Below are positions 1-27,796 of a stretch of 30,466 nt of DNA, one piece after another (within the stretch, counting starts at the first letter, position 1; the number at the start of each line of letters is the position of its first letter). The stretch comes from Candidatus Eiseniibacteriota bacterium (lineage in GTDB: Bacteria; ARS69): assembly GCA_052390515.1 (NCBI GenBank), contig JBQTGV010000159.1:1-30466 (forward strand). The letters are read 5' to 3'. The notes beneath the pieces were generated by a model, which searched no databases, was not told where the DNA came from, and worked only from the letters and a program-made list of their open reading frames with translations. The position numbers and the translations under genes are program-made.

Positions 1-2741
1 ACCAGCGCGCGGGCGCCCGCGGCGCGGAACGCGCGGCGCAGGCCCAGCACTCCCTCGTTGAGATCCAGCTCGCCGAGCCCGGTGTCGCACGCGGACAGGG
101 CGACCCACTCGAGCGCGTCGAGATCGAGCCCCGCGATCTCCTCGGCCGTCAGGATCCCGTCGTCGGCGGGGTCGCGCGCACTGGAGCGGTCGTTCGCGCC
201 GGCCAGCGCCAATCCGCCGCGCAGCAGCGGATGGGCTGTATCCGCGCCGTCCTCGCTCCCGGACACGGCGCAGCTCTCCGGCAGGAAGAACCCGTGCGCG
301 GCGACGTGGAGAGCTCGCCGTCCGGGCGCCCCCTCCCGCAGCGCCCGCTCGCTGGCGGCGGCGCCGGTGAGCACCTTCGCCCGATCCTCCGAGGCCACGC
401 CGCGCTCCGCCGACTCCCACGCGCGCGCGATCTCCGTCACCTCCGCGGCGGACCCGGGCAGCGGCGCGAACCGACCGCCCGCGAGCACCGCGCAGGGATC
501 CTCCTCCACCCGCAGCCCCGCCGCGCGTGCGATCGCCGGGTCCGCGTCGAACGCCGGCCCGCCCAGCGCGAGGAGTCCCCGCCCGCCGCCGTGCTCGCGG
601 GCGGCGGCCGCGACGAGGTCGCGCTCGACCGCCAGCGCGCAGAACACAGGGCCGGTCTCGGCCAGCGTCCGCCCCCGTCCGTCCGGCAGAGCGGCGAAGG
701 GCACGACGAGCAGCGGGCTCTCCGGAGCGACGAAGACGCGCGAGGCGCCGGCGCAGAGCGCGGCCACCGGATCCCAGATCGTCTCGCGCACGCGGCGGCC
801 CAGGGACTCGCAAGCTTCCTCGTCCGCGCCGCGGCGCAGCGCATCCGGCGGCCGGCGCATCGCCGAGAGCCAGGCGTGGACCTTCGCCTCCACGTCTCGC
901 GCGAGCCCCAGCGGCACCGCCCGCGGGCCGGGTCCGTCGGCAGCCAGCACGAACGCGACGACCGAGGTGGTGGACTCCGACGCGACGCCGAGGAAGAGAT
1001 CCTCATACCAGGCCCAGGTCACCAGGGCCGACCCCTGCGGCAGCGCGGCGGCGATCTCGGCGAGGCCCGCACCAGATCCGCGCAGCTCGCGGCGAAAGGC
1101 CAGGCTGTGCTCGGCGAGAGCCTGCTCGGCCTCGCGCTTCGCGGCGATCGCGGCCGCCAGCGTGTCCGCTCCCCCAAGCGCGAGGTGCGCCAGCCGGTCC
1201 CGTGCCGCGGCAACGCGCGCGTGCAGCCGAAGGGCCGCGGTGTCGCCGCCGGCCGCCGCCCAGTGGCGGCGCTGCGCCATCTCGTCCAGCACCACCGACC
1301 GCGAGCGCGCGAGCGCGTCCCAGGTCCGCGCGACGACCGCGGTGTCGCGCGGGGCGGCCGCCGCCGCGGTGAGCGCCACCTGCAAGCCGGACGAGCGCGA
1401 GGCCGTGTAGATCAGGGCCTGCGCCTCGTCGAGACCTTGCGCCGTGATCCGCAGGTGCTGCAGCGTGACGCGCTCGGCCTCGAGCGCCAGGTCCAGCGCC
1501 TCGCCGGCTCGCCCGAGCCGGAGCAGCGCCTCGGCCAGCGCGATGGTCGCGTCCTGCGCGAAGGGGTGATCCGCGCCGAGGTGCTCGCGGTTCGCCGCGG
1601 CAGCCTGGCGCAGCACGCGCTCTGCTTCGTCGGGCGCATTCGCGTCGAGGAGAAGGCGACCCAGGCGCAGCCGGGTGCGCGCCGCTTCCGCGCTTCCCGG
1701 ACCGAGGAGCGAGTCCCGGATGGCGATGGAGCGCTCGAACAACGGTCGCGCGGCGTCGGTGCAGCCGAGCGTCGCCTGCGCGAGCGCCAGGTTGTTGAGC
1801 ACCTGCGCCACGGAGCGGTGCCACGGCCCGTAGGCTCGCTCGTAGATGTCCAGCGCGCGCTCGTGCAGCGGAACGGCGGCCGCGGCGTCCCCGGAGCGCT
1901 CCAGCGCGTTGCCGAGATTCATGAGGCTCACCGCGACGTGGACGTGCTCGGGGCCGAGGAGCTTCTCGCGGATCCCCAGCGCACGGCGGTTGAGCCGCGC
2001 CGACTCGGCGAAGTCGCCGAGGTCGTAGTAGACGTTGGCGAGATTGAGCAGCGTCCAGGCCACGTCGGGGTGTTCGGTCCCCAGCACCCGCTCGCGGATC
2101 TCCAGCGCTCGCCGATGCGTGCGCAGGGCGTCCAGGGACCTGCCCGCGTTGCGGTAGGCGATGCCGAGCGCGTGCAGCGCCTGCGCTGCCGGCGTGCTCT
2201 CCGCGCCGGAAAGACGCTCCCGCAGCGCATGCACCTCGATCCAGCGCTCGACGGCCCGCTGTGGATCGCCGCCGCTCATCTCGACGTTGGCGAGGATGGA
2301 GAGCGCGCGGGCACGCTCGCCGTCGTGCTCCGCTCCGCCGGTTGCCTCCAGGATCCGCAGCGCACGCTCGGCGGCCGCCCGCGCCTCGTCGAGGCGGCCG
2401 GTGGGCCAGAGAGTCATGCCCAGCAGGTCGAGCGCGGCGGCGACGCGGGGATCGGACTCGCCGTGCGCGCGCTCGCGCAGGTACACGGCGCGCATCGCCT
2501 GCTCCACCTGCCGCTCTCCCGCGCGCGACTGCTGGACGTCGGCGCGCAGCACACGCTCGATCGCTTCGACGAACCTCACGCTGTCGGGGCCGGGATCCAC
2601 CTCGGCGGCCTGCAGCAGTGCCGCGGCCAAGCTGTCCGCCTCACGATAGCTGCCCGCGGCGAGAAGCGCGTCAACCGAGTCGGCGGGCGCGGGCGTCGGC
2701 GCCGCGGTGAGCATCAGGAGTGCGCCGGCGGCGGCGATCAC
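1..2741 (-). CDS. TPR repeat / CHAT domain (caspase-like) protease, 3' end outside the window
   Basis: Manually translated minus frame, absent from the ORF track because no stop is in the window. GTG at 2741 overlaps the sigma-factor stop (GTGA). N-terminus MIAAAGALLMLTAAPTPAPA is signal-peptide-like. Kinesin-light-chain-type TPRs (e.g. LGTEHPDVAWTLLNLANVYYDLGDFAESARLNRRALGIREK). CHAT motifs LHVAAHGFF (His codon 294-296) and DGILTAEEIAGLDL...LSACDTGLG...EGVLGLRRAF (Cys codon 87-89). Confidence 0.92.
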   Translation of the reverse strand, partial: MIAAAGALLMLTAAPTPAPADSVDALLAAGSYREADSLAAALLQAAEVDPGPDSVRFVEAIERVLRADVQQSRAGERQVEQAMRAVYLRERAHGESDPRVAAALDLLGMTLWPTGRLDEARAAAERALRILEATGGAEHDGERARALSILANVEMSGGDPQRAVERWIEVHALRERLSGAESTPAAQALHALGIAYRNAGRSLDALRTHRRALEIRERVLGTEHPDVAWTLLNLANVYYDLGDFAESARLNRRALGIREKLLGPEHVHVAVSLMNLGNALERSGDAAAAVPLHERALDIYERAYGPWHRSVAQVLNNLALAQATLGCTDAARPLFERSIAIRDSLLGPGSAEAARTRLRLGRLLLDANAPDEAERVLRQAAAANREHLGADHPFAQDATIALAEALLRLGRAGEALDLALEAERVTLQHLRITAQGLDEAQALIYTASRSSGLQVALTAAAAAPRDTAVVARTWDALARSRSVVLDEMAQRRHWAAAGGDTAALRLHARVAAARDRLAHLALGGADTLAAAIAAKREAEQALAEHSLAFRRELRGSGAGLAEIAAALPQGSALVTWAWYEDLFLGVASESTTSVVAFVLAADGPGPRAVPLGLARDVEAKVHAWLSAMRRPPDALRRGADEEACESLGRRVRETIWDPVAALCAGASRVFVAPESPLLVVPFAALPDGRGRTLAETGPVFCALAVERDLVAAAAREHGGGRGLLALGGPAFDADPAIARAAGLRVEEDPCAVLAGGRFAPLPGSAAEVTEIARAWESAERGVASEDRAKVLTGAAASERALREGAPGRRALHVAAHGFFLPESCAVSGSEDGADTAHPLLRGGLALAGANDRSSARDPADDGILTAEEIAGLDLDALEWVALSACDTGLGELDLNEGVLGLRRAFRAAGARAL

Positions 2742-3310
2742 CTCGCGTCCGCTCCGCGCTCCACGCGCATGCGCTCGCGGAGCCGGCGAATGCACTCGAA
2801 CATGCGCGCGCGCATCGTGCCCTCGCTGCGTTGCTCGCGGACGGCGATCCGCGCGTACGGCCAGCCCTCGAAGTAGTGCAGGCGAATGACCTCGCGGCAC
2901 CTTTCGTCCAGTGCGTCGAGCGCCCGGTGCAGGCGGGCGCGTTCGCCCTCGGCCTCGACGGCGTCGGCCGGGCCGGGCCCCGTGTCGGGAAGCGTTTCGT
3001 CGACCGGGTCGGCGCGGCGCACGCGCAGCCGGCGCACTCGGTCGATGGCCCGTGCCAGCGTGACGGTGCGTACGAAGGCGCGCAGCCCGTGGCGAAGGTG
3101 AAAGCCCGGGCGGGCCGCCGCCTGCCAGACCTGGACGACGACCTCCTGGACGATGTCGTCGACGTCCTCGGGTGCGAGATTCAGGCGGCGGTAGAGGAGG
3201 ATCTCGCGGGTCCAGCGGTCTATCTGCCGGCAGGCGCCGGCCTCGCCGGCCAGGAAGCGCCGGAGGAGCAGATCGTCCCCTGCGGCGGGCAGGGTGGAGG
3301 AAGCGTCCAC
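2738..3310 (-). CDS. ECF-type RNA polymerase sigma-70 factor (~190 aa)
   Basis: Region 2 (EDVDDIVQEVVVQVW...LARAIDRVRR) and region 4 (LDALDERCREVIRLHYFEGWPYARIA...GTMRARMFECIRRLR). The track ORF starts at 3388; GTG at 3310 preceded by GAGG is the more likely start. Confidence 0.9.
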   Translation of the reverse strand: MDASSTLPAAGDDLLLRRFLAGEAGACRQIDRWTREILLYRRLNLAPEDVDDIVQEVVVQVWQAAARPGFHLRHGLRAFVRTVTLARAIDRVRRLRVRRADPVDETLPDTGPGPADAVEAEGERARLHRALDALDERCREVIRLHYFEGWPYARIAVREQRSEGTMRARMFECIRRLRERMRVERGADAR

Positions 3311-3320
3311 GCGGGCCTCG

Positions 3321-3350
3321 TTGGCAGCCGTCGAGTGGGAGGAGTATAAA
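3321..3350 (+). promoter_or_regulatory. Putative sigma70-type promoter for the anti-sigma gene
   Basis: TTGGCA (3321-3326), 18 nt, TATAAA (3345-3350) in a 92-bp divergent intergenic region. TATACT on the minus strand overlaps it (3343-3348). Confidence 0.5.
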
Positions 3351-3402
3351 CGCGCGGGCGACTCGTGCGACAAGACGGCGGGAGGCATTCGGGAGGGAAG
3401 CC

Positions 3403-4299
3403 ATGGACCACCAGGAGGCGTCGCCGCTCGTCTCGGACTGGGTCCGCGGCGAGCTCGGCGGGAGCCGGGCCGCGCTCGTCGAGCGGCACGTGGCCGGATG
3501 CCGCGAGTGTCGCGACGCGGCGGAGGCGGTGCGGGCTCTCGTGGCGGAAGCCGGGCGGATGCGGGGCGCCGCGGTGGCGCATCCTCCCGCGGACACGCTG
3601 GCCCGCTACGTCACGGCGCCGCGGGAAGAGCCGTTCGCGTCGCTCGCCGGCGTGGCCATCCATCTGCAGGGCTGCGCGCCGTGCCGTGAGGACGTGGCCC
3701 TGATGCGCGAGGCCTCCGTGCCGGGCTGGTGGCGGCCGATCCGCGCCTGGTTCGCCTCGGCACCGCCCCTGCCGCGCGCGCTGCAGCCGGCCTTCGCCGC
3801 CGCCGTCGTGCTGCTGATCGTGCCCGCGTGGTTCGGCATCGTGGACGCGCCGCGGCAGCGCGCCGAGTCGGAGGGCCGCGTGCGCGCCGCGGAGGAGGCT
3901 CGCGCGAAGGCGGAGTCGGAAGCCGCGTTTCTGGCGCAGCGCGCCGCCGAGGCGCCACGCGGCGGAGGCGTGGCGGCCCTGGTGTTGCGCGGCGCGACGC
4001 GATCGGCGGAGGAGGCGCCCACGCTCTGGCTGCGCGCGGATCAGGCGCTGCAGCCGCTCCTGCTCGACGTGACGCCACCGGACGCGCCGATCACCGTGCG
4101 CCTCGTCGGCGCGGACGGGGTGATCGCCTGGTCGGCCTCCGGAGCACGGGACGAGTTCTGGGACGAGGCGAACCGGCTCGTCGGCGTGCTCGTGCCGGCC
4201 GCGTTGCTGCAGCCCGGCGAGCACCGAGTGGAGCTGTCGGCGGGTCCGGACGAGCCTGCGTTCTTCTCGGCCGCGTTCCGCGTTCTTCCCGTGCAGTGA
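3403..4299 (+). CDS. Membrane-anchored anti-sigma factor with two tandem zf-HC2 (ZAS) motifs (298 aa)
   Basis: ATG at 3403 after GGGAGGG. HVAGCREC and HLQGCAPC (HxxxCxxC) motifs, one hydrophobic helix (AFAAAVVLLIVPAWFGIV), a coiled coil, and a C-terminal beta-rich domain. Divergent from the ECF sigma gene. Confidence 0.85.
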   Translation: MDHQEASPLVSDWVRGELGGSRAALVERHVAGCRECRDAAEAVRALVAEAGRMRGAAVAHPPADTLARYVTAPREEPFASLAGVAIHLQGCAPCREDVALMREASVPGWWRPIRAWFASAPPLPRALQPAFAAAVVLLIVPAWFGIVDAPRQRAESEGRVRAAEEARAKAESEAAFLAQRAAEAPRGGGVAALVLRGATRSAEEAPTLWLRADQALQPLLLDVTPPDAPITVRLVGADGVIAWSASGARDEFWDEANRLVGVLVPAALLQPGEHRVELSAGPDEPAFFSAAFRVLPVQ

Positions 4300-4309
4300 C
4301 TCGCCGGAA

Positions 4310-5470
4310 CTACGATGCCGGCTCGGGGACGCCGGCGACGATGCTCCAGGCGCGCGGGTTCGCCTTCAGCCGTTCCAGCAGGCGCTGCGCCAGGAGCTCG
4401 TGGCCCAGGTCCGAGGGGTGGTAGTTGAAGCGCCCGAGCCGGTAGGGCTCCAGGTCGGCCACTCCCTCGAACGTATCCAGCAGGTTCACGCAGGGGATGT
4501 CGAGCTGGGCGAAGAGCTCCGGGACGCCCTCGAACCGTTCCGCGATCTCCACCGGCTCTCCCACCGTCGGCACCAACACGGCGACGACCTCCGCGCCTTC
4601 CTCGCGCGCGCGCCGCCGCATGGTCTCCATCGCCCAGCGCACCGTCTCGTTGCGGTGCGGCGCGAGCTTCGCGTCCAGAGTCGCCGGATCGTCGTCCGGC
4701 CGCAGATCGGCGCGGACGGCGAGCTCCTCCAGGAACGGGTAGTGCAGGTCGATTCCGTCGTGCACGAGCTGCCCGACGTGATCGCCCCACTTGCGGAACA
4801 CGGTGAGATCCGAGCACACGATGAGGTACGCCTGCGGCGAGAAGCGCGGCGCGATCTCGTCGACCACCCAGAGCATCTGCGTCACGCGGTAACCGCCGAC
4901 GGCGAAGTTCAGTAACTCGTAGCGCTCGACATCCGCGGCGGGCCGGTCGGCACCGAGCATCTCCTCCAGGCGCGCCTCGAAGCTCTTGCCCGCGGTAGCC
5001 CCGAGCCCCTGCACCACGGAGTCCCCGATCACGCCGATGCGGCGCGTGCCGGGGGGCCGCTCCACCGTGTACTCCCGGTCGGCCATCCCGAACGAGTTCG
5101 TGCGGAGTCGCACGCCGAGCTCCGGCACGTCGAGGTTGGACGCGAGCTTGTAGTAGACGAACCCGGGAACGCGCTCGTTCGTGGAGTTCATCTGCAGGCC
5201 GCGCCACCGCGACCAGTTCGTCGCCCACTTGCCGGTGACGAGGCGGTTGGTCGAGATCGTGCGGCTGCTGTGGTCGAAGAGGTCCTCGTAGTACCCGGCG
5301 GTCATCTGATCGGCGGCATCGGCGGCGACGGTGTCTTTGCGGACGCGGCGCAGCATGCGCTCCCACAGCGGCCGGTCGGCGCGGTCGTCATCCCCGGGAA
5401 AGAGCAGGACCGGCGCCAGCAGAGCGAGGAGCGTGATGAAGCAGGCCAGCGCGGGTCGGGAGCGCAGCAT
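4310..5470 (-). CDS. SGNH/GDSL-fold protein with N-terminal membrane anchor (AlgJ/DltD-like role; 386 aa)
   Basis: N-terminal hydrophobic helix, block I RIGVIGDSVVQG, block II LNFAVGGY, block V FNYHPSDLGH. Last gene of the MBOAT/A-domain operon. Confidence 0.85.
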   Translation of the reverse strand: MLRSRPALACFITLLALLAPVLLFPGDDDRADRPLWERMLRRVRKDTVAADAADQMTAGYYEDLFDHSSRTISTNRLVTGKWATNWSRWRGLQMNSTNERVPGFVYYKLASNLDVPELGVRLRTNSFGMADREYTVERPPGTRRIGVIGDSVVQGLGATAGKSFEARLEEMLGADRPAADVERYELLNFAVGGYRVTQMLWVVDEIAPRFSPQAYLIVCSDLTVFRKWGDHVGQLVHDGIDLHYPFLEELAVRADLRPDDDPATLDAKLAPHRNETVRWAMETMRRRAREEGAEVVAVLVPTVGEPVEIAERFEGVPELFAQLDIPCVNLLDTFEGVADLEPYRLGRFNYHPSDLGHELLAQRLLERLKANPRAWSIVAGVPEPAS

Positions 5471-5493
5471 CTAACGTTCCCTCGAGACGGACA

Positions 5494-7047
5494 CTAGGCG
5501 CCGGTCAGGTCGCGCAGCAGCCGCTGGTAGTCGGTCTTTCCCGTGGAGGTGAGCGGCAGATCGTCGCGCCAGGCGAAGGAGTCCGGAACCATGTACGCCG
5601 GCAGGTTGTCGTGGCAGAAGCGCTTCATCTCGATCACCGAGAGTCGATCGCCCTCGGCCACGCAGCAGGCGACGATTTTGACGCCCTGGCTCTCGTCGCG
5701 GACCGAGACCGCCGCCGCCTTGGTGATGCGCGGATGCTTGTAGAGTGCGCTCTCCACCTCGCCGAGCTCGATGCGATAGCCCAGACGCTTGACCATGCGG
5801 TCGCGGCGGCCGACGTAGACGAGATCGCCGTTCGAGTCCGGACGCACGACGTCGCGGGTGTCGTACCAGCGCACGCCGTTCACTTCGTCGAAGGCCTCGG
5901 CGTTCTCCTTGGGCCGGTTCCAGTAGCCCTGGAAGACGCAGTCACCGGAGAACCACAGCACGCCCTCTTCGCCGGGGGGTGCCGTCTTGCCGTCGCCGTC
6001 GCGGATCCAGGAGATGGTGTGGCTGCCGCAGGGCTTGCCGATGGGCGGCGGCTCGGTCACGTCCGCCGGGATCGGCGGCACGACCTCGTGGTACGTGCAC
6101 ACGTTCGTCTCCGTGGGGCCGTAGAGGTTGTACCAACGCGAGCGGGTCCAGATCTCCGTGCAGCGGCGCAGGTGCTTCACCGGGAAGACCTCGCCGGCGA
6201 AGAGCGCGAGCCTGGGTCCCTCCCAGCCGGCCTTGTCCATCCCGCCGAACTGCAGCATGAGCGAGAGCGTCGAGGGCGTCGAGTACCACACGGTGAGGTC
6301 GCGCTCGGCGGCGAAGGCGACGAGCTCCTTGGGGCTCTTGCCGAGGTCGTCGGGGATGAGGTGGACGGAGGCTCCGTGCTTCCAGGCCACGTGCAGGTCG
6401 AGGATGGAGAGGTCGAAGTGGAAGGGCGCGTGGCTGGAAAAGCGGTCGTCGGCGGTCGGCGCGAACACCTGCGAGCACCAGTCCACGAACGAGAGCGCGT
6501 TCTTGTGGCTGATCTTCACGCCCTTGGGGATGCCGGTCGATCCCGACGTGTACAGCACGTAGGAGAGATCGTCGGGATTCCGCGGCACGGTCCCCGGTGC
6601 GAGCGGCGCGGAGTCCAGTGCCGCAGCGAACGGCCGCGATCCGGAGGGCGCGGCGTCGCCTTCGCCCATGAGCAGCACCTCGGGTCTTCGCACCGGCCAC
6701 TCGTCGAGCATCCCCGCGCACTTCCGGTGCAGCAGCAGTACGCGCACCTCGCAGTCCGACATGATCGCCCGGCCGCGGGCGTCCGGCGCGGTCCAGTCCG
6801 AGGGCACGTAGGCGGCACCGCACTTGAGGGCCGCGACGATCGTGGTGACGGCCTCGAAGCTCTTGGGGACGGTGAGGCCGACGCGTTCGCCGGGAACCAC
6901 GCCGGCGGAGCGCAGGAATCCGGCGAGCCGATCGGCGCGGCGGTTCAGCTCCGCGTACGAGAGCGAGGAGCCGTCCGGCATGACCACCGCCGGACGCTCC
7001 GGGTGCTTCGCCGCGGCGGCCTCGAACGTGTCCGCGAGATGGGTCAC
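5494..7047 (-). CDS. Stand-alone amino acid adenylation enzyme, predicted L-proline--carrier protein ligase (PltF/RedM/CloN4-like; 517 aa)
   Basis: Core motifs LSYAEL, YTSGSTGIPKG, FDLS, NLYGPTE, GRRDRMVKRLGYRIELGEVE, PLTSTGKTD. Specificity residues read by eye against GrsA give DLLYLALVCK. GTG start overlaps the carrier protein stop. Confidence 0.9.
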   Translation of the reverse strand: MTHLADTFEAAAAKHPERPAVVMPDGSSLSYAELNRRADRLAGFLRSAGVVPGERVGLTVPKSFEAVTTIVAALKCGAAYVPSDWTAPDARGRAIMSDCEVRVLLLHRKCAGMLDEWPVRRPEVLLMGEGDAAPSGSRPFAAALDSAPLAPGTVPRNPDDLSYVLYTSGSTGIPKGVKISHKNALSFVDWCSQVFAPTADDRFSSHAPFHFDLSILDLHVAWKHGASVHLIPDDLGKSPKELVAFAAERDLTVWYSTPSTLSLMLQFGGMDKAGWEGPRLALFAGEVFPVKHLRRCTEIWTRSRWYNLYGPTETNVCTYHEVVPPIPADVTEPPPIGKPCGSHTISWIRDGDGKTAPPGEEGVLWFSGDCVFQGYWNRPKENAEAFDEVNGVRWYDTRDVVRPDSNGDLVYVGRRDRMVKRLGYRIELGEVESALYKHPRITKAAAVSVRDESQGVKIVACCVAEGDRLSVIEMKRFCHDNLPAYMVPDSFAWRDDLPLTSTGKTDYQRLLRDLTGA

Positions 7048-7307
7048 TTCCCGCCCTTCTTGCGCGCGACGAGTGCCGCGATGTCGGCGATGCGGTCGAA
7101 GTCCTGGATGCCGGTCTCGTGCGCGGCGATCTCCACGCCGAACTCGCCCTCGACGTAGGACACCAGCTTGATCGTGGAAAGCGAATCGAGGATCCCGCTG
7201 GTGCGGAGCGGGGTGTCTTCGCCCAAGTTCTCCGGCGATTCGCCGGGCAGGAACTCCGAGAGGATGTAGGTCTTCAGCCGGGTCTTGATGGTCTGCAAGT
7301 CGCTCAT
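7044..7307 (-). CDS. Acyl/peptidyl carrier protein (87 aa)
   Basis: Small acidic protein with phosphopantetheinylation motif GILDSL...LVSYVEGEFGVEI, translationally coupled to the A-domain gene. Confidence 0.92.
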   Translation of the reverse strand: MSDLQTIKTRLKTYILSEFLPGESPENLGEDTPLRTSGILDSLSTIKLVSYVEGEFGVEIAAHETGIQDFDRIADIAALVARKKGGK

Positions 7308-7333
7308 GAAGCGCGTCCCCCTTTCTCCGGGTG

Positions 7334-7339
7334 ATTATA
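7334..7339 (-). promoter_or_regulatory. Possible internal -10 element upstream of the carrier protein gene
   Basis: Perfect TATAAT on the minus strand in the 55-bp MBOAT/carrier protein gap of a very GC-rich sequence. No convincing -35. Confidence 0.4.
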
Positions 7340-7362
7340 ACGGCAGCCTGCGGGTCCGTCTT

Positions 7363-8622
7363 TCAGCCGATCTTCCCGTAGGTCAGGAGCTCCAGCCAGG
7401 CGGCCAGCGTCGGGCTGGACCACAGGGACCACAGCACCACGATCAGCGAGAACGTGCCGGCGGTCTTCGCGAAACGGAGCGGCCAGGCGGGCGGCGGCCG
7501 CCTGCGGTCGGCGCGGAGCTCGCGGTGCACGTTCACCACCACGAGCGCGCCCAGCGTGCCCCAGAAGAGCGTGTCGGGCAGGGTCAGCAGCCATTCGCCG
7601 GAGAGCCACCAGTACTGCCACGCGTGCGTGAGCCAGGTCACGAAGAAGACAAGCACCGTGCCGATGAGCTGCGCCCGGACGTCGCCGCTCCTGCGCAGCC
7701 GGAAGTACGTCGGCAGGTAGACCATCTTCACCATGAAGTCCTTCCAGTAGATGTTGATGCGCCGCCAGAAGTCGGTGAGGCTCGAGGCCAGCAGCCACTT
7801 GCGATGCGTCTCGGGAAGGTCGTAGCCGAACAGGTGCAGCATGCCGACGATGATGTGGAAGGTGCCGGACACCTTGAGATACAACAGGTAGGTGAGCACC
7901 ATGGTCTGCACCAGCGCCGCGAGCGTCGTCACCTCCACCGGCGATCCGCGGCCGCGCAGCTGCACCACGATGCGGTAGAGCACGAGCTGCAGCGTGCCGC
8001 GCACCAGCCAGACGATTCCCTGCTGCGCCACGTCGTGGATGTTGCGGCGCAGGAAGGATTGCCTCATCGTCTGGAAGTCCACGACCGGGAAGAACAGGAA
8101 GTAGAAGTTCGGCAGCATGAAGAAGTACGTGGCGAAGTGCGTGAAGCCGAAGGGTGTCTTGGCGTGCTTCAGCTCGTACAGGTAGACGGCGAGGCGGAAC
8201 ATGAACAGTGCGCCGACGGTCGGCCAGAACGCGGCCGGCACGCCCGTATCCGGCAGGCCGCGCGCGGCGACGACCGCGACGCCGAGCAACAGGATGACGG
8301 AGAGGCGCACGCCGAACGGGAACGGCAGCCGGGTGACGCCGTACACCAGAACGCCGAAGCCGAGCACGAGCGCGGCGACCGGCGGCTCCAGCACGAGGAA
8401 CGCGCCGGCGGTGGAGAGCAGGATGAGGAAGCCTTCCTTGAGGCGCACCGGGAGCCAGTAGTGCACGGCGAACCCGCCGAAGCAGAGCACCGCGACGACG
8501 AAGAAGACGGGGCCTTCCACGTGATAGGCGTGGAAGGCGGCGAGCAGGAGCGCGAGCTGTCCGAGAAGGAGTGCGAACCGCGCCGGCCGCGGCCGGGCGT
8601 TCGCCGCGAGCGCCTCGCTCAA
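7363..8622 (-). CDS. MBOAT family membrane-bound acyltransferase (AlgI/DltB-like; ~419 aa)
   Basis: C-terminal half of track ORF 7363..9771. TTG at 8622 overlaps the dehydrogenase stop (TTGA). Many TM helices, LFGYDLPE...SSLTDFWRRINIYWKDFM..MVYLP, and catalytic His in TWLTHAW. Confidence 0.88.
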   Translation of the reverse strand: MSEALAANARPRPARFALLLGQLALLLAAFHAYHVEGPVFFVVAVLCFGGFAVHYWLPVRLKEGFLILLSTAGAFLVLEPPVAALVLGFGVLVYGVTRLPFPFGVRLSVILLLGVAVVAARGLPDTGVPAAFWPTVGALFMFRLAVYLYELKHAKTPFGFTHFATYFFMLPNFYFLFFPVVDFQTMRQSFLRRNIHDVAQQGIVWLVRGTLQLVLYRIVVQLRGRGSPVEVTTLAALVQTMVLTYLLYLKVSGTFHIIVGMLHLFGYDLPETHRKWLLASSLTDFWRRINIYWKDFMVKMVYLPTYFRLRRSGDVRAQLIGTVLVFFVTWLTHAWQYWWLSGEWLLTLPDTLFWGTLGALVVVNVHRELRADRRRPPPAWPLRFAKTAGTFSLIVVLWSLWSSPTLAAWLELLTYGKIG

Positions 8623-9761
8623 AGGCCGAGACCTCGGGCGATGATGTTGCGCTGGATGTCGTTCGTGCCGGAGTAGAAGAGTGCACCGAGACCGTCGCGG
8701 AGGTCCCGCTCCACCTCCTGCTCGGTCATGTACGAGTAGGAGCCGAGCGTGCGCATCGCGTCGAGGCAGGAGGCCACGAAGCACTCGGAGACGTGCAGCT
8801 TCGCCACGGCCGCCTCGATGCGCGCGTTCTTCCCCGCGTCCTTGAGCTGCCCGATGCGGTAGACGAGCGGCCGGCAGACGTCGAGGCGGATCCTCATGTC
8901 CACGATGCGGTTCGCTACCGTCTGGTACTTGCCGATGGCGTGGCCGAACTGCTTGCGCTCGCGGGCGTAGCGGATGCTCTCCTCCAGCAGGCGGCGCATC
9001 GTGCCGAGCTGCCCGGCGAGGATGCAGCCGCGCTCCCACTCCATGGAGCAGTCGAAGACCGCGCCTCCTCGCCCTTCCTTGCCGAGCCGCCGGTCGTCGG
9101 ATACGAAGCACTCGTCGAACACCACTTCGGCCATGGGCGACGTCCGCAGCCCCATCTTGTCGAGCGGACGCGGGATGGAGACGCCCTTCATCTTCGGGTC
9201 GATGATGAACGCGGTGACGCCCGTCGCGCCGAGCGAGGGGTCGATCGTCGCGTAGGCGACGAGCACGTCGGCCACGGGCGCGTTGGTGATGAACATCTTG
9301 GAGCCGCTGAGCACGTAGCCGCCGTCGACCTTCCGCGCACGTGTGGCCATGGCGAAGACGTCGGAGCCGGAGTCCGGTTCGGTGGCGGCGTTGCCGCCGA
9401 TCCAGTCGCCGTTGATGAGCTTCGGCAGGTACGCGCGCTTCTGCGCATCCGTGCCGTACTCGAGGATGGGGATGACCGCGGTCCAGAGATGCGCGTTGGC
9501 CGAGAAGATGAGGCCGGCGTCCCGGCAGCCGTAGCCGAGGCCTTCCATCACGGCGATGAGGTCGGTGAGGCCGACGTCGAGCCCGCCGTACTCCTCGGGA
9601 ACGGGCATGCCCAGGACGCCGAACTCGGCGAGCGCCCGCCAGCCCTCGCGGTCGAAGCGCTCGTGGCGGTCCCGCTCGATCATGTCGCGGCCCAGCTTGC
9701 CCCGGGCGAGCTGGACGGCGGCGTCCTGCAGCTTGGATTGTTCTGCGGTCAGTTCGATCAT
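8619..9761 (-). CDS. Acyl-CoA dehydrogenase family flavoenzyme, predicted L-prolyl-carrier-protein dehydrogenase (PltE/RedW/PigA/AnaB-like; 380 aa)
   Basis: ATEPDSGSD, GSKMFITNAP, KMGLRTSP, RKQFG motifs. Candidate catalytic Glu243 in MEWER, and FYSGT instead of YEGT. Start MIELTAEQ at 9761 after AGGTGG. Confidence 0.88.
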   Translation of the reverse strand: MIELTAEQSKLQDAAVQLARGKLGRDMIERDRHERFDREGWRALAEFGVLGMPVPEEYGGLDVGLTDLIAVMEGLGYGCRDAGLIFSANAHLWTAVIPILEYGTDAQKRAYLPKLINGDWIGGNAATEPDSGSDVFAMATRARKVDGGYVLSGSKMFITNAPVADVLVAYATIDPSLGATGVTAFIIDPKMKGVSIPRPLDKMGLRTSPMAEVVFDECFVSDDRRLGKEGRGGAVFDCSMEWERGCILAGQLGTMRRLLEESIRYARERKQFGHAIGKYQTVANRIVDMRIRLDVCRPLVYRIGQLKDAGKNARIEAAVAKLHVSECFVASCLDAMRTLGSYSYMTEQEVERDLRDGLGALFYSGTNDIQRNIIARGLGL

Positions 9762-9821
9762 GGCGGCCCACCTATGTACCATTCCTGCAGGGTCTTCGGC
9801 AACCGCGCACGGCACCTGAAC

Positions 9822-9850
9822 TTGAGCGATTCCGACGCGGCGGGTAAGGT
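9822..9850 (+). promoter_or_regulatory. Possible promoter for the second SGNH gene, possibly leaderless
   Basis: TTGAGC (9822-9827), 17 nt, TAAGGT (9845-9850), 6 nt, ATG. TAAGGT could instead be a Shine-Dalgarno site. Confidence 0.35.
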
Positions 9851-9856
9851 CGGCCG

Positions 9857-10885
9857 ATGAAGCTCTCCGACGCGGCGACCTTTGCGACGAGCCTCCTCGT
9901 TGCCCTGACGGCGGCCGAAGTCGGGCTGCGCGTGGCCGACAAGTTCGAGCCCCCGAAGAATCCTCCCGAGTGCGGCTACTGGGACCCGCGCATCTGCGAG
10001 ATGTACGCGCCGGTCGAGGGCTACGGCTACGCGCTGCGGCCTTCGACGACGGTGACGTACGACTATCCGATGACGAACCCGCGGCGGATCACGGTGGTCT
10101 CGAACCGGCACGGGTTCCGCCAGAGTCGGGAGCTGGACGCGGTGGGCGGCGCGGGCGACTCCGACGGGGTGGGCGACACAGGCGACGCGGACGACCGGCG
10201 GCGCCTCCTGGTGCTCGGGGACTCGTTCGTATTCGGCGAGGGAGTGGAGGAGAGCGAACGCTTCACGGATGTCATGGAGACGATGTCGCCGGGGTGGCGC
10301 GTCGACAACCTCGGGATGACCGGCTGGGGACCGGATCTCATGCTGCGCGCGCTGGAAGAGGTGGGCGTCGCTCTTCGCCCCGAGGCCGTCCTCTTGTGTC
10401 TCTACACGCACGACTTCCGCCGCGTGCATCCGCTGTACGCCGGCGTCGGGTTTCGCATCCCGCGCTTCGAGCTGCGCGGCGAGGGGCTCGTGACGGTGCC
10501 GTATCCGCCGCCGCGGCTGTCGCAGAAGCTGCGCGTGCTCTGGGCGATGTCGCCGTCGCGGCTTTCGTACGAGAGCCCCATGTGGGACGTGCATGCCGCC
10601 ATCCTGGACCGCTTCCGCGGACTGGCCGCGCGGCACGACTTCGCGCTGCGCGTCGCGTTCCTGCCGGGACGCTCCGACGGCGATGCCGACCGCGAGCGGC
10701 GCGAGTGGCTCGCCCGCTACTGCGCGGGCCACGGCATCGCGTTCGTCGACCTGACCGAGCCGATCCTCTCTCGCCCGCGCGACGAGGTATTCATCGCCGG
10801 CGGGAACCCGCACTGGAGTCCCACGGGGCACCGCTTCGTGGCGGAGCGGCTTCGCGGCTGGGTGACGGGAGAGATCGCGCCGTAA
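9857..10885 (+). CDS. SGNH/GDSL-fold protein with N-terminal membrane anchor (342 aa)
   Basis: SLLVALTAAEVGLR anchor, NRHGFR, LLVLGDSFVFGEGV, VDNLGMTGWG, GNPHWSPTGH. Divergent from the dehydrogenase-MBOAT operon. Confidence 0.88.
   Translation: MKLSDAATFATSLLVALTAAEVGLRVADKFEPPKNPPECGYWDPRICEMYAPVEGYGYALRPSTTVTYDYPMTNPRRITVVSNRHGFRQSRELDAVGGAGDSDGVGDTGDADDRRRLLVLGDSFVFGEGVEESERFTDVMETMSPGWRVDNLGMTGWGPDLMLRALEEVGVALRPEAVLLCLYTHDFRRVHPLYAGVGFRIPRFELRGEGLVTVPYPPPRLSQKLRVLWAMSPSRLSYESPMWDVHAAILDRFRGLAARHDFALRVAFLPGRSDGDADRERREWLARYCAGHGIAFVDLTEPILSRPRDEVFIAGGNPHWSPTGHRFVAERLRGWVTGEIAP
10136..10189 (+). repeat. Imperfect in-frame 27-nt tandem duplication encoding a D/G-rich linker
   Basis: GACGCGGTGGGCGGCGCGGGCGACTCC / GACGGGGTGGGCGACACAGGCGACGCG (21/27 identical), encoding DAVGGAGDS DGVGDTGDA. 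Confidence 0.5.
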
Positions 10886-10897
10886 GCGCCGCGCCGG

Positions 10898-11167
10898 TCA
10901 AGGCTCGGCCGATTCCGCGGCCGGCCCGTCCGCATCGAACATGCGGTACTCGCGGACGGAGCCCGAGTCGTAGCGCAGCTCGTCGCCGAGCGAGTACGTG
11001 CCGAAGGCCGCGTCCTGGTAGTAGGACACGAGTCCGGCGGCGGGGTCGTCGAGGAGGAAGGGGAGCCGTGCGGCGAGGAACAGCGCGAGCGCGGCGACGG
11101 ACCGTTCGCCAGCGGTGCCACGCGGGTGCGGCTGCCGGCTCTGCCTCGGGCGGAGAGGCCATGGCAC
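10898..11167 (-). CDS. Hypothetical small membrane protein or gene fragment (up to 89 aa)
   Basis: Protein-like composition with one hydrophobic stretch (SVAALALFLAARLPFLL) followed by LVSYYQDAAFGTYSLGDE. Start uncertain. Confidence 0.35.
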   Translation of the reverse strand: MPWPLRPRQSRQPHPRGTAGERSVAALALFLAARLPFLLDDPAAGLVSYYQDAAFGTYSLGDELRYDSGSVREYRMFDADGPAAESAEP

Positions 11168-11212
11168 CGTCGAACCTGCCTCGCCGGACCCGCGCCCGTC
11201 ATCCCCGCCGCG

Positions 11213-11281
11213 GCCGAGGCTCAGCCCGGCGTGGACCTTCTCGACCGCGACAAGCTCTTCGATCTCATGAACGGCCGCTGA
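11213..11281 (+). pseudogene. C-terminal remnant of a VapB-type antitoxin
   Basis: Frame ending in TGA at 11279-11281, 2 nt before the vapC ATG, reads AEAQPGVDLLDRDKLFDLMNGR*. This resembles the PGVDL.DRD.L.DLM tail of VapB antitoxins. No recognisable N-terminal DNA-binding part upstream. Confidence 0.6.
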
Positions 11282-11283
11282 AG

Positions 11284-11718
11284 ATGCTAGCGGTCGACAC
11301 GAACGTGCTGGTCTTCGCCGAGATCACCACGTCGCCACATCACGCGCAGGCTCGCGCCGTTCTGACCGAGCTCGCGCAGGGCACCGTTCCGGGCCATTCC
11401 GTGGCCCTGCATCTACGAGTTCCTGCGGGTGGTCACGCATCCACGCGTGTTCCATCCGCCGGTGCCGTTGCGCCGCGCGCTGGAGGACGTGCGCGCCGCC
11501 TCCTGGACTCGCCGACGCTCGTCCTGCTGCAAGAGACCCCCAACCACGACGAGACGATGATGCGGGTCCTTCGAGAGTCCGAAGTGTCCGGCAACCTGAT
11601 TCACGATGCCCTCATCGCGGCGCTTTGCATCGAGCACGGAGTCCAGGAGCTCGTGACCGGGGACCGCGACTTCGGCCGGTTCAAGCCGCTGAAGACGCGG
11701 AACCCCTTCGAGGGGTGA
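11284..11718 (+). pseudogene. vapC: VapC/PIN-domain toxin with two compensating frameshifts
   Basis: MLAVDTNVLV N-terminus and GNLIHDALIAALCIEHGVQELVTGDRDF C-terminus share one frame. The conserved middle AIPWPCIYEFLRVVTHPRVFHPP...ALEDVR lies in another frame between ~11393 and ~11499. Confidence 0.8.
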
Positions 11719-12580: not shown

Positions 12581-13807
12581 CTACCGGACCACGACGATCC
12601 GGCGCGTCTCCGAGCGGCTCTCACCCTCGACCCGGAGGAAGTAGACCCCCGCCGCGAGGCGCCTGGCGTCGATGACCACGGTCCGGCGCTCCCCGTCGCC
12701 GAGGCCGGCGCTCAAGAGGCTCCGCACGCGCCGTCCGCCCACGTCGATCAGGTCGGCCTGCACGTGCTGCCGCCCGTCGACGGAGAGCTCGAACCGCCCG
12801 GTCGCCGCGATCGGCTGGGGCCACGGCCCGGACAGCGAGAACCCGGCCGCTGCTTCCAGGGCCGGCACGCCCGTCGGGTCGTAGCAGCCGCCGCCCGAAG
12901 TCTCGGAAACCGCGAGGTACCCTCCGGCTCCGGCCACGGTGTACTTCGAGTTGAGGACCATGTCCGCGGCGAAGAGGTCGGCGGTCGTCCCGCTGTCGAG
13001 CAAGCACCACGTCGAGCCGGCGTCGGTGCTGCGTAGCACGGTGCCGCCCTCGCCGACCGCGAGCATCCAATTCGCGTTCTGGGCGCTCGAATCCAGGTCG
13101 TGCAGGTCGGCGGTGGTGCCCGTGGCGATGGGCAACCACGTCTCGCCGGCGTCGGTGCTCCGGAGAAGGATGCCGCCTTCACCCGCGGCGAACAGCCAGC
13201 CGGCCGCGCCCTCCAGGTAGGCGTACAGGTTCGCCGTGGTGCCGCTGGGCTTCGCCACCCAGTTCGCTCCGCCGTCCACCGTCTTCAAGATGGTGCCGCC
13301 GTCGCCCACCGCGTACGCGAGGCTGGTGGAGAAACCGTTGCCGTCCCGGATCGCGGAGGTCGTGCCGCTGGACTGGAGGCTCCAGTTGTCGCCCCCGTCC
13401 GTCGACCGGTAGATGGAGCCGCCGGTGCCGCCGGCGAACGACGCCCCGCTGCTGCGGCTGAAGACCACGAAGTCCTCCGCGCTCGCGATGTCGCGACTCT
13501 CCCAGGACGCGGCGACGAGCCGGCGGACGGCGCCGCCCGCCCCGCTGATCCACGCCTGCCCGGCCGACGGCTGGTGCACGGCCAGGAGATCGTCGGTGGA
13601 TCCCACGCTGACGGGGGTCCAGACGAGCTGCGTCGGGTCGGACTGGGCGACGAAGCCGGCGTCGCCGACCACGTAGCGCTGCGAGTGGCTCGACTTCTCG
13701 ATCGCCCTCAAGCTCGCGGACGTTCCGAGCGGGATGACCGTCCAATCCTGGGCATGGGCAGATGGCGCGATCATCCCGACGATCGCGAGAATGGACCGGG
13801 CGCGCAT
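12581..13807 (-). CDS. Secreted Ycf48/BNR-repeat beta-propeller protein with C-terminal T9SS/FlgD-like sorting domain (408 aa)
   Basis: Signal peptide ending AHA-Q, repeated GxGGxI(L/Y)RSTDxGxxW units, C-terminal PWPQP...DVGGRRVRSL...LAAGVYFLRV. RBS AAGGAG. Confidence 0.88.
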   Translation of the reverse strand: MRARSILAIVGMIAPSAHAQDWTVIPLGTSASLRAIEKSSHSQRYVVGDAGFVAQSDPTQLVWTPVSVGSTDDLLAVHQPSAGQAWISGAGGAVRRLVAASWESRDIASAEDFVVFSRSSGASFAGGTGGSIYRSTDGGDNWSLQSSGTTSAIRDGNGFSTSLAYAVGDGGTILKTVDGGANWVAKPSGTTANLYAYLEGAAGWLFAAGEGGILLRSTDAGETWLPIATGTTADLHDLDSSAQNANWMLAVGEGGTVLRSTDAGSTWCLLDSGTTADLFAADMVLNSKYTVAGAGGYLAVSETSGGGCYDPTGVPALEAAAGFSLSGPWPQPIAATGRFELSVDGRQHVQADLIDVGGRRVRSLLSAGLGDGERRTVVIDARRLAAGVYFLRVEGESRSETRRIVVVR

Positions 13808-27329: not shown

Positions 27330-27764
27330 ATGTTGGACGCAGCGGCATTGAGCCTGGCCCTGGTCGCGCTGACGGCGTTCGGGCACTACGAGATGCTTCG
27401 CCGTCTCAACGACTTCCTGCCCCGCGTCGCGTTCGTGCCTCGCCGCGCGAAGGTGCTGGCGGCGATGCTCGGAGCCATGGTCAGTCACGGGTGCCACATC
27501 GCCCTCTTCGCCGCGGCCTACTATGTTCTTCGTGACCGCCTGGGCCTCGGGAGCCTCGGCGGTCAGTTTCGTGACGTCTTCTCCAGCTATTACTTCTCCG
27601 CGGAGACCTATACGTCGCTGGGGCTCGGGGACGTCTACCCGGTCGGGCAGATCCGCATGGTCGTCGGCGTCGAGGCTCTCACCGGCTTGCTGATGATCAG
27701 CTGGACCGCGTCCTTCACGTATCTGGAGATGAGTCGCTACTGGGATCGACCCTCCGGCGTTTGA
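27330..27764 (+). CDS. Small potassium-channel pore domain protein (Ion_trans_2; 144 aa)
   Basis: Hydrophobic helices around YYFSAETYTSLGLGDVYP...EALTGLLMISWTASF. Confidence 0.85.
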   Translation: MLDAAALSLALVALTAFGHYEMLRRLNDFLPRVAFVPRRAKVLAAMLGAMVSHGCHIALFAAAYYVLRDRLGLGSLGGQFRDVFSSYYFSAETYTSLGLGDVYPVGQIRMVVGVEALTGLLMISWTASFTYLEMSRYWDRPSGV

Positions 27765-27790
27765 CCCGCGGCCCCTCCACTCGCGATAAT
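27761..27790 (+). promoter_or_regulatory. Putative sigma70-type promoter, possibly leaderless
   Basis: TTGACC (27761-27766), 18 nt, GATAAT (27785-27790), 6 nt, ATG at 27797. No clear Shine-Dalgarno sequence. Confidence 0.5.
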
Positions 27791-27796
27791 GAAGCC

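Follow-up and report, generated by a model that had tools for sequence, protein, structure and literature searches.

A predicted carrier-fed MBOAT-SGNH cassette with a proline-activating trio in a Candidatus Eiseniibacteriota bacterium and its relatives in other phyla

Among the closest described systems is Dlt, in which DltB passes D-alanine from the carrier protein DltC to the tyrosine in the FxYxxF motif of DltX and then to the serine of DltD; in the same source, membrane-bound O-acyltransferases (MBOATs) of the PatA type are described as bearing FxYxxF at their own C-terminus and the further MBOAT-SGNH pathways treated there as working without a carrier protein (PMC12148441). The present study deals with a stretch of 30,466 nucleotides from a Candidatus Eiseniibacteriota bacterium (assembly GCA_052390515.1, contig JBQTGV010000159.1, positions 1 to 30,466; the whole stretch is hereafter called the window), in which one operon joins a dehydrogenase, an MBOAT-fold membrane protein, a carrier protein, a stand-alone adenylation enzyme and an SGNH protein (SGNH1). 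A further point of comparison is AlmEFG of the Gram-negative Vibrio cholerae, where glycine is added to lipid A by an acyltransferase for an envelope lipid that receives its substrate from a DltA-like enzyme and a carrier; AlmG belongs to the LpxL family, as does the PF03279 acyltransferase of the planctomycete variants described below. Searches of the full-text literature, subscription journals and supplements lying outside their reach, found no account of bacterial MBOATs that receive their substrate from a prolyl- or pyrrolyl-carrier. The original prediction, made from the sequence of the window, likewise knew of no characterised pathway of such a build.

Our preferred reading, which we hold to be moderately probable on the homologies presented below, is that the operon encodes a Dlt-like, carrier-dependent MBOAT-SGNH relay, which would export a pyrrole-2-carbonyl group to an extracytoplasmic acceptor. 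The adenylation enzyme would activate L-proline and load it onto the phosphopantetheine at Ser42 of the carrier, and the flavin dehydrogenase would convert the prolyl-S-carrier to pyrrole-2-carbonyl-S-carrier, most likely in a four-electron oxidation. At the cytoplasmic face the MBOAT protein would accept the acyl group from the carrier, and it would move this group through the membrane via the invariant His333; SGNH1 would receive it, possibly via Tyr60/Tyr61 of its GYYExL motif and then Ser151, and esterify an extracytoplasmic acceptor, be it a glycan, a lipid or a protein. Where sister cassettes include a PltA-type halogenase, this enzyme would halogenate the still carrier-bound pyrrole. 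A Dlt-like export hybrid of this kind had been put forward in the original prediction and is supported within the limits of a computational analysis.

Gene content and predicted chemistry of the operon

The five genes of the operon, in order of transcription, and a divergently transcribed neighbour are the following:

8619-9815, minus strand, 398 aa: flavoenzyme of the acyl-CoA dehydrogenase (ACAD) family, predicted prolyl-S-carrier dehydrogenase (Pfam/NCBIfam)
7363-8622, minus strand, 419 aa: predicted divergent MBOAT-fold membrane acyltransferase (frame/start analysis, fold)
7044-7307, minus strand, 87 aa: stand-alone carrier protein (PP-binding)
5494-7047, minus strand, 517 aa: stand-alone adenylation enzyme (A-domain), predicted to be L-proline-specific (AMP-binding and AMP-binding_C)
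4310-5470, minus strand, 386 aa: SGNH1, N-terminally anchored, predicted to perform the last acyl transfer step (Lipase_GDSL_2)
9857-10885, plus strand, 342 aa: SGNH2, SGNH-like, divergently transcribed, of doubtful membership (Lipase_GDSL_2, below cut-off)

The G+C content of the window is about 70%, and its lists of open reading frames (ORFs) are consequently crowded with false frames. Genes were therefore called from codon-position G+C together with Pfam and NCBIfam scans, which resulted in a single minus-strand operon. Existence, positions and order of the six genes originally predicted were borne out in this way, and the presence of an MBOAT gene likewise, but the ORF listed for it had to be replaced. 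This ORF, 7304-8686 on the minus strand, is the longest over the region, Arg/Ala-rich and without family match, and was rejected as a wrong frame; the true gene at 7363-8622 lies in the same frame as an 802-aa ORF. Automatic annotation could overlook or miscall this gene. Dehydrogenase and MBOAT genes are joined by a TTGA overlap, the TTG start of the latter overlapping the stop of the former, and carrier and A-domain genes by a GTGA overlap, in which the GTG start of the A-domain overlaps the carrier stop. The remaining gaps measure 55 nt between MBOAT and carrier, with a GGAG-rich, purine-rich site resembling a ribosome-binding site, and 23 nt between A-domain and SGNH1. Neither a polyketide synthase (PKS), a condensation domain of a non-ribosomal peptide synthetase (NRPS), a halogenase nor a FabH-like gene was found in the scan of the window, just as had been claimed at the outset.

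The adenylation enzyme scored 268.6 bits against AMP-binding and 342.8 bits, above the cut-off, against TIGR01733 (amino-acid adenylation), and is free-standing, consisting of AMP-binding and AMP-binding_C only, with neither a condensation nor a thiolation domain. Its best single-domain relative in the PDB is PltF (6o6e, 327 bits), other single domains reaching at most 230 bits; gramicidin synthase entries rank above PltF because their scores sum two domains. From motif positions and a MAFFT alignment the specificity code was read as DLLYLALVCK, the code positions being assigned by motif spacing and by GrsA numbering. Stand-alone L-proline activators are given the consensus L(L/F)YLALVC in the literature, to which the eight inner code residues of the enzyme, between Asp235 and Lys517, are equal (PMC3874040). 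The code string DLLYLALV itself had no match in the full texts of papers. Because the code fits this consensus and PltF is the nearest solved single-domain relative, the enzyme is predicted to be L-proline-specific, and the original claim of proline activation thereby gains support. Against two DltA models the enzyme reached 275 and 259.5 bits (cut-offs 476 and 560), so that it is not assigned to the D-alanine-specific DltA family.

The carrier (PP-binding, 28.1 bits) possesses a phosphopantetheine site at Ser42, which lies in the stretch GILDS and is invariant among 44 cassette orthologues. Its best NCBIfam match is ACP_for_OlsHI (100.9 bits, cut-off 130), and DltC follows with 23 bits (E 5.6e-5). 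A link to the OlsH/OlsI pathway of planctomycetes was considered and dropped, since that ornithine-lipid pathway relies on a GH3-like enzyme together with an alpha/beta hydrolase and has no relation to the cassette. A second pair of carrier and adenylating enzyme exists in the same genome (contig C62:6696-8573, locus L102), with an asparagine-synthase-like gene adjoining and no MBOAT beside it; its adenylating enzyme scored 518 bits against the model of the exosortase-A-associated acyl-CoA ligase (cut-off 592), and its carrier also matched the ACP_for_OlsHI model, with 53.5 bits.

The dehydrogenase contains the three Pfam domains Acyl-CoA_dh_N, Acyl-CoA_dh_M and Acyl-CoA_dh_1. Among NCBIfam models it came closest to PigA (429.6 bits) and RedW (393.6 bits), the next family reaching 251 bits, and by these scores it is placed as a sister group of the PigA and RedW equivalogs and a member of neither. 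The top matches in the PDB are AnaB (4irn, 408.8 bits) and a prolyl-carrier dehydrogenase of the PigA type (5zw0, 321.6 bits); named acyl-CoA dehydrogenases reached at most 243 bits, and an entry titled butyryl-CoA dehydrogenase (6cxt) 290 bits. The RedW model matched six ACAD proteins in the genome, the window dehydrogenase best with 394 bits and the next with 276, which leaves it as the sole such copy. Its nearest solved relatives being prolyl-carrier dehydrogenases, and a Pro-type A-domain and a carrier being linked to it in 44 of the 80 loci treated below, the enzyme probably stands on the prolyl-carrier and not on the acyl-CoA side, as had been supposed.

How far the oxidation would proceed is indicated by the sister cassettes. 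Genes for PltA-type halogenases were found in or beside the cassette at five loci with one or two copies (L018, L023, L066; two each in L041 and L044) and as a fragment at L030, five of these six loci being complete cassettes and one, L041, incomplete; at L041 halogenases, carrier, MBOAT and SGNH are present, and A-domain and dehydrogenase were not found within 10 kb. The halogenase of L023 (7927-9303), the one tested, reached 577 bits against ChlB4, 572 against PltA and 564 against Mpy16. PltA and Mpy16 are halogenases acting on pyrrolyl-S-carrier proteins. Because enzymes of the PltA type sit in sister cassettes, the cargo is more plausibly a pyrrolyl-S-carrier than a pyrroline, and a halogenated pyrrole is predicted as cargo for the halogenase-bearing Acidobacteriota and one Pirellulales genome. 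Of the oxidised prolyl cargo originally proposed, either pyrrole or pyrroline, the pyrrole is thus favoured, its oxidation state in the window operon being carried over by orthology.

That the same relay stops after two electrons, in the manner of AnaB, and carries a pyrroline-carbonyl (dehydroprolyl) group, we consider unlikely. Two observations speak for it and against the pyrrole: the dehydrogenase is nearer to the two-electron enzyme AnaB than to PigA by the scores given above, and the window operon itself is without halogenase. However, the dehydrogenase of L023, which stands beside a PltA-type halogenase, leans equally towards AnaB (417 bits, compared with 304 to PigA). Nearness to AnaB therefore characterises the cassette family as a whole and, since the halogenase-linked enzyme displays the same preference, is uninformative on two-electron chemistry.

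The MBOAT identity of the 7363-8622 product is based on its predicted fold and not on family matches. An AlphaFold2 (AF2) model from 120 sequences had a mean predicted local distance difference test score (pLDDT) of 94.9 and a predicted template modelling score (pTM) of 0.91, and in a Foldseek comparison this model retrieved DltB first (8jem_A, E 1.2e-8, template modelling score 0.66; also 6bug_C), followed by HHAT, PORCN, LPCAT3, DGAT1 and ACAT, with a probability of 1.00. More than 1,138 relatives of the protein were counted among the best 8,000 candidates by shared words, some of them labelled AlgI or DltB by JGI. Invariant in 120 homologues are H333 in a TWxxH context, H256, the WRR of 286-288 and the YWKD of 292-295; N290, within the stretch WRRINIYWKD and 43 residues upstream of H333, is conserved in at least 90%. 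This spacing resembles that of the Asn/His pair of MBOATs, and from the order of motifs H333 is inferred to be the equivalent of the catalytic histidine. The protein ends in LLTYGKIG, with tryptophan as consensus residue at the position of the tyrosine, and possesses neither an invariant tyrosine nor FxYxxF there. A complex prediction of MBOAT and carrier, run without controls, yielded a median score of 0.27 with the mark at 0.32 and is not taken as evidence on binding in either direction.

SGNH1 matched Lipase_GDSL_2 (PF13472) with 37.7 bits and had no DltD match in Pfam, and is accordingly not placed in the DltD family. In its AF2 model (pLDDT 88.4) residues 4-23 form a helix at the N-terminus, and the predicted fold is that of SGNH proteins, for which CgnD was the best solved match (8a2n, Z 22.0, root-mean-square deviation 3.0 over 240 residues). 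Y61, R144, G149 and S151 are invariant in 89 relatives and H351 is kept in 88 of them. Y61 belongs to a juxtamembrane motif, (G/N)YYExL, in which Y60 is conserved in 88/89 and Y61 in all 89, as strictly as the catalytic S151, and a motif of the GYYE type was also found in the linker of all 16 fused MBOAT-SGNH proteins examined and in all four paralogues of the window genome. A simple pattern scan of 4000-11500 for a DltX-like small frame (a hydrophobic helix with C-terminal [FYW]xYxx[FLIMVW]) found none, and since the cassettes are compact there is no space for such a gene in the sister loci. The tyrosine of GYYExL may serve as the acyl shuttle of the SGNH1 family in place of FxYxxF.

The divergent SGNH2 had originally been counted as part of the system. 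It reached 32.1 bits against Lipase_GDSL_2, just below the cut-off of 32.9, and its identity with SGNH1 is 29% across the 85 residues that surround the GDS block. Weak tblastn matches (43-78 bits) occurred in only 4 of the 80 loci, and just two partial ones among 30 relatives (34-36% identity); for this poor conservation it was rejected as a member of the cassette. SGNH2 and the operon may have a regulatory region in common.

Conservation, fusions and variants of the cassette

Loci were collected with the MBOAT profile alone, one genome per species, and the best 80 were analysed with flanks of 10 kb; at least 508 of the 596 matched stretches encode an MBOAT relative. Dehydrogenase (at least 42% identity), Pro-type A-domain (at least 40%), carrier and SGNH1 all stand beside the MBOAT gene in 44 loci. 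The five genes together span mostly 5.3-6.0 kb there, and because this is about the sum of the genes (approximately 5.4 kb) no other gene fits between them. The other loci are of the following types:

10 of 80 loci, planctomycete type: Pro-type A-domain and SGNH present, dehydrogenase and carrier without match
8 of 80 loci, Acidobacteriaceae and kin: carrier and SGNH together with a distantly related adenylating enzyme
18 of 80 loci: other partial combinations, several of them on truncated contigs

Complete loci were found in Acidobacteriota (19), Planctomycetota (12), Pseudomonadota (7), Gemmatimonadota (2) and once each in Myxococcota, Rhodothermota, a metagenome-assembled genome (MAG) labelled Actinomycetota and an unlabelled MAG, so that the cassette is present in seven named phyla among the 44. 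An SGNH gene adjoins the MBOAT gene in 78 of the 80 loci; in 19 of these 78 the two form one open frame, 13 of which are accompanied by the full trio. One relative of 854 aa (P0215) is a fusion of the MBOAT family (18-438, hhalign E 3.9e-77) with the SGNH1 family (536-852). By their length, approximately 19 of the 150 SGNH1 relatives listed look like fusions, the N-terminal half having been checked for P0215 only. The linkage of the trio to the MBOAT-SGNH pair exceeds chance, and the conserved linkage that the original prediction presupposed was recovered across several phyla, in neighbourhoods and in fusions alike. Another relative, P0163 (797 aa), combines an AMP-binding domain (12-343) with an SGNH1-like part (549-786) and could be a mis-joined gene call.

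In an MBOAT tree (quick method, support by Shimodaira-Hasegawa-like approximate likelihood ratio test only, midpoint root) the trio label required 17 changes over 46 rows, compared with 28 in shuffles; the association of trio and MBOAT is clustered and does not form a single clade. The window copy groups with Vicinamibacterales and the four paralogues of its genome with Gemmatimonadota rows, by which placement the cassette may have been acquired laterally. Its base composition (GC 0.683, genome 0.702) gives no sign of recent transfer. Since only 3 of 11 genomes of the same family have an MBOAT match, the system is patchy. A MAG labelled Bifidobacteriaceae (L036) carries a full cassette 53-64% identical to that of the window, with an MBOAT sister to a Vicinamibacterales locus; this contig is probably mis-binned or its label wrong.

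Two kinds of variants deserve description. The cultivated planctomycete Singulisphaera acidiphila DSM 18658 (L062, 9845-16476) has an MBOAT, two SGNH genes, an A-domain with the Pro code DLFYLALVCK and an acyltransferase of the LpxL family (PF03279), while dehydrogenase and carrier genes were not found at the locus; nine further planctomycete loci are similar. This arrangement is reminiscent of lipid A aminoacylation of the AlmEFG type, and S. acidiphila is a species that has been rendered accessible to mutation (PMC12493201). The Acidobacteriaceae variant (L006, L010, L016, L017, L019, L024, L028, L070) has kept MBOAT, SGNH and carrier together with an adenylating enzyme of the code AHAPFALSAK, which is without Asp235 and resembles fatty-acyl ligases. 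The surroundings of L006 (2979-20164) comprise genes for NusG-like, DUF218, PMT_2, GT2, LPG_synthase_TM, amine-oxidase and sugar-nucleotide epimerase proteins. Going by these exchanges of the activating enzyme, the MBOAT/SGNH/carrier platform seems to accept different cargos.

Acceptor, acyl donor and competing explanations

Several further findings weigh against the proposed relay. The MBOAT protein matched no Pfam family at E values up to 1, reached only 21.6 bits (E 1e-4, cut-off 375) against TIGR04091 (DltB), and by sequence had no match among solved chains, either singly or as a profile of 24 sequences. After CgnD, the solved matches of SGNH1 are generic esterases with Z of at most 16, and DltD, PatB, AlgX and AlgJ are outside its best 50 solved-chain matches; that SGNH1 faces the outer side of the membrane is itself predicted. 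The dehydrogenase remains below the equivalog cut-offs of both PigA (500) and RedW (650). All-against-all clustering and a Pfam tally of 144 ORFs beside complete cassettes for which flanks were available yielded no widely shared neighbour family that would name the acceptor, the most frequent one occurring in 5 of 144. Finally, all steps of the relay are drawn from homology.

The tally was led by GT4 glycosyltransferases (5), FG-GAP proteins (4) and sulfotransferases (3), while GT2, pyruvyl transferase and polysaccharide deacetylase turned up once or twice, which hints at a glycan acceptor in some lineages. As polysaccharide genes stand beside a minority of loci only, it must also be weighed whether the acyl group goes to a small molecule or a membrane lipid, giving a pyrrole-ester natural product or lipid and no decorated envelope polymer. 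The pyrrolyl-carrier trio is not otherwise known outside small-molecule pathways, CgnD, the nearest solved fold to SGNH1, comes from a natural-product pathway, and the planctomycete variants include the LpxL-like lipid acyltransferase. Nevertheless, the characterised bacterial MBOAT-SGNH pairs all modify envelope polymers (PMC12148441), and the cassette occurs in genomes without any other secondary-metabolite assembly line, for which reasons we assign this explanation a low probability.

Four paralogous MBOAT::SGNH fusions are encoded elsewhere in the window genome (C1:12180-13409, C73:18681-19907, C64:18116-19366, C212:7585-8838; 43-48% identity), each within a frame of 837-991 aa whose linker bears GYYExL, and neither carrier, A-domain nor dehydrogenase was found near them. 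Hence, the MBOAT family is not always dependent on a linked carrier, which again counts against the relay; the fusions might use acyl-CoA, or draw jointly on the single carrier in trans. A PMT_2 glycosyltransferase neighbours the fusion on C1, and an arylsulfotransferase and a sulfatase that on C73. Together with the 6 of 80 loci that have SGNH only, these fusions would suit an MBOAT-SGNH pair fed by acyl-CoA, like PatA/PatB, with the trio as a separate function that merely shares the operon. This we regard as improbable, because the trio directly abuts the pair in 44 of 80 loci without spare room, codons overlap across the junctions, and the variants that exchange the A-domain for a fatty-acyl-type ligase nonetheless keep the carrier beside the pair, as would fit a carrier-fed acyltransferase.

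The assembly of the window genome (4.27 Mb, 223 contigs, 95% complete) contains one NRPS-PKS cluster, on contig C138 (L087, L088), with two FabH-like genes, a flavin halogenase, a condensation-adenylation-thiolation (C-A-T) module, a module of ketosynthase, acyltransferase, ketoreductase, acyl carrier protein and sulfotransferase (KS-AT-KR-ACP-sulfotransferase), a second C-A-T, an Sfp-type phosphopantetheinyl transferase and a pyrroline-5-carboxylate reductase; a proline trio of its own was not found in this cluster. In two of five other cassette genomes, one a complete chromosome of 4.8 Mb and the other the closest relative, no condensation domain was found, and their ketosynthase matches are frames of about 400-460 aa and one of 713 aa; such absence weighs fully only for the complete chromosome, as an incomplete genome without match proves none. 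Because two of five cassette genomes lack a condensation domain, the cassette needs no assembly line, and the carrier is not bound to serve a PKS or NRPS elsewhere, which had been named as a possible refutation. That the trio supplies pyrrolyl-S-carrier to the C138 cluster, MBOAT and SGNH being bystanders, would explain a cluster equipped with FabH-like genes, halogenase, modules and phosphopantetheinyl transferase and no trio, but is highly improbable given that its halogenase is of the CtcP/PltM (tetracycline/PltM) type (439 and 340 bits, only 81 to PltA) and that the five-gene linkage is conserved in genomes without condensation domain.

Window context and comparison with known systems

Other features of the window are:

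3-3596, minus strand, and 3172-4299, plus strand: CHAT-TPR protein and zf-HC2 anti-sigma-like protein, flanking the operon
12581-13807, minus strand, and 27761-30373, plus strand: two BNR/sortilin-repeat proteins with Por_Secre_tail or FlgD_ig ends (sorting signals of the type IX secretion system, T9SS, type)

The window further holds genes for a PIN protein, an enolase-superfamily enzyme, a creatininase, a DUF1611 protein, a pyridoxal-phosphate (PLP) enzyme, a SET protein, a molybdopterin oxidoreductase and sulfur-related functions. An M28 peptidase on contig C1 of the same genome shares the T9SS-type sorting tail.

In its widest form the carrier-fed relay proposed here would mean that bacteria of at least seven phyla decorate a polymer or lipid of their surface with a pyrrole-2-carbonyl group, which in some lineages would be halogenated, through a second carrier-fed MBOAT-SGNH relay, in which the shuttle tyrosine has moved from MBOAT or DltX onto the SGNH protein (GYYExL) and the platform is general for the export of carrier-bound acyl groups; we give this extended claim a little less than an even chance. 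If it holds, Dlt would be joined by a second carrier-fed MBOAT relay, with hundreds of loci mostly in phyla of the Gram-negative type, and a building block so far known from antibiotics and pigments only (pyoluteorin, prodiginines, anatoxin) would enter the biology of the cell envelope. Acidobacteriota, Planctomycetota and Gemmatimonadota of soil and water would gain an aromatic, sometimes halogenated surface decoration. The invariant GYYExL bears on how general the acyl-tyrosine shuttle mechanism is, and with about 5.5 kb the cassette is compact enough for expression in a laboratory host.

With Dlt of Firmicutes (DltA/C/B/X/D, D-alanylation of teichoic acids) the cassette shares a stand-alone adenylation enzyme with a small carrier, and an MBOAT fold nearest to DltB in the same operon as a membrane-anchored SGNH protein. 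It differs in its predicted proline-derived cargo, whose oxidation on the carrier would fall to an additional flavoenzyme, in a code of the Pro and not the D-Ala type, in an MBOAT far below the DltB cut-off, in GYYExL on an SGNH protein without DltD match where Dlt has the microprotein DltX, of which no counterpart was found, and in its hosts, mostly phyla generally regarded as Gram-negative. AlmEFG is not known to include an MBOAT, an SGNH protein or a dehydrogenase, and the window has no LpxL-like gene.

The trios PltF/L/E (with PltA), RedM/O/W, PigI/G/A and AnaC/D/B likewise combine a free-standing Pro A-domain, bearing the L(L/F)YLALVC code, with a stand-alone carrier and an ACAD-family dehydrogenase, and PltA-type halogenases recur in some sister cassettes. 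In contrast to all of them, the acyl-transfer enzymes linked here are MBOAT and SGNH only, with no ketosynthase, condensation or FabH-like enzyme, and the window dehydrogenase falls short of the PigA and RedW equivalogs of the Pig and Red trios. PatA/PatB, AlgI/AlgJ/AlgX and WssH/WssI resemble the cassette in an MBOAT beside or fused to an SGNH protein, in the invariant MBOAT histidine and SGNH serine, the SGNH histidine being kept in 88 of 89, and in a tyrosine-bearing tether between the two catalytic domains; they differ in that the donor here is predicted to be an acyl-carrier protein and not acyl-CoA, and in that the C-terminal FxYxxF of the MBOAT is absent and the conserved tyrosines lie on the SGNH side.

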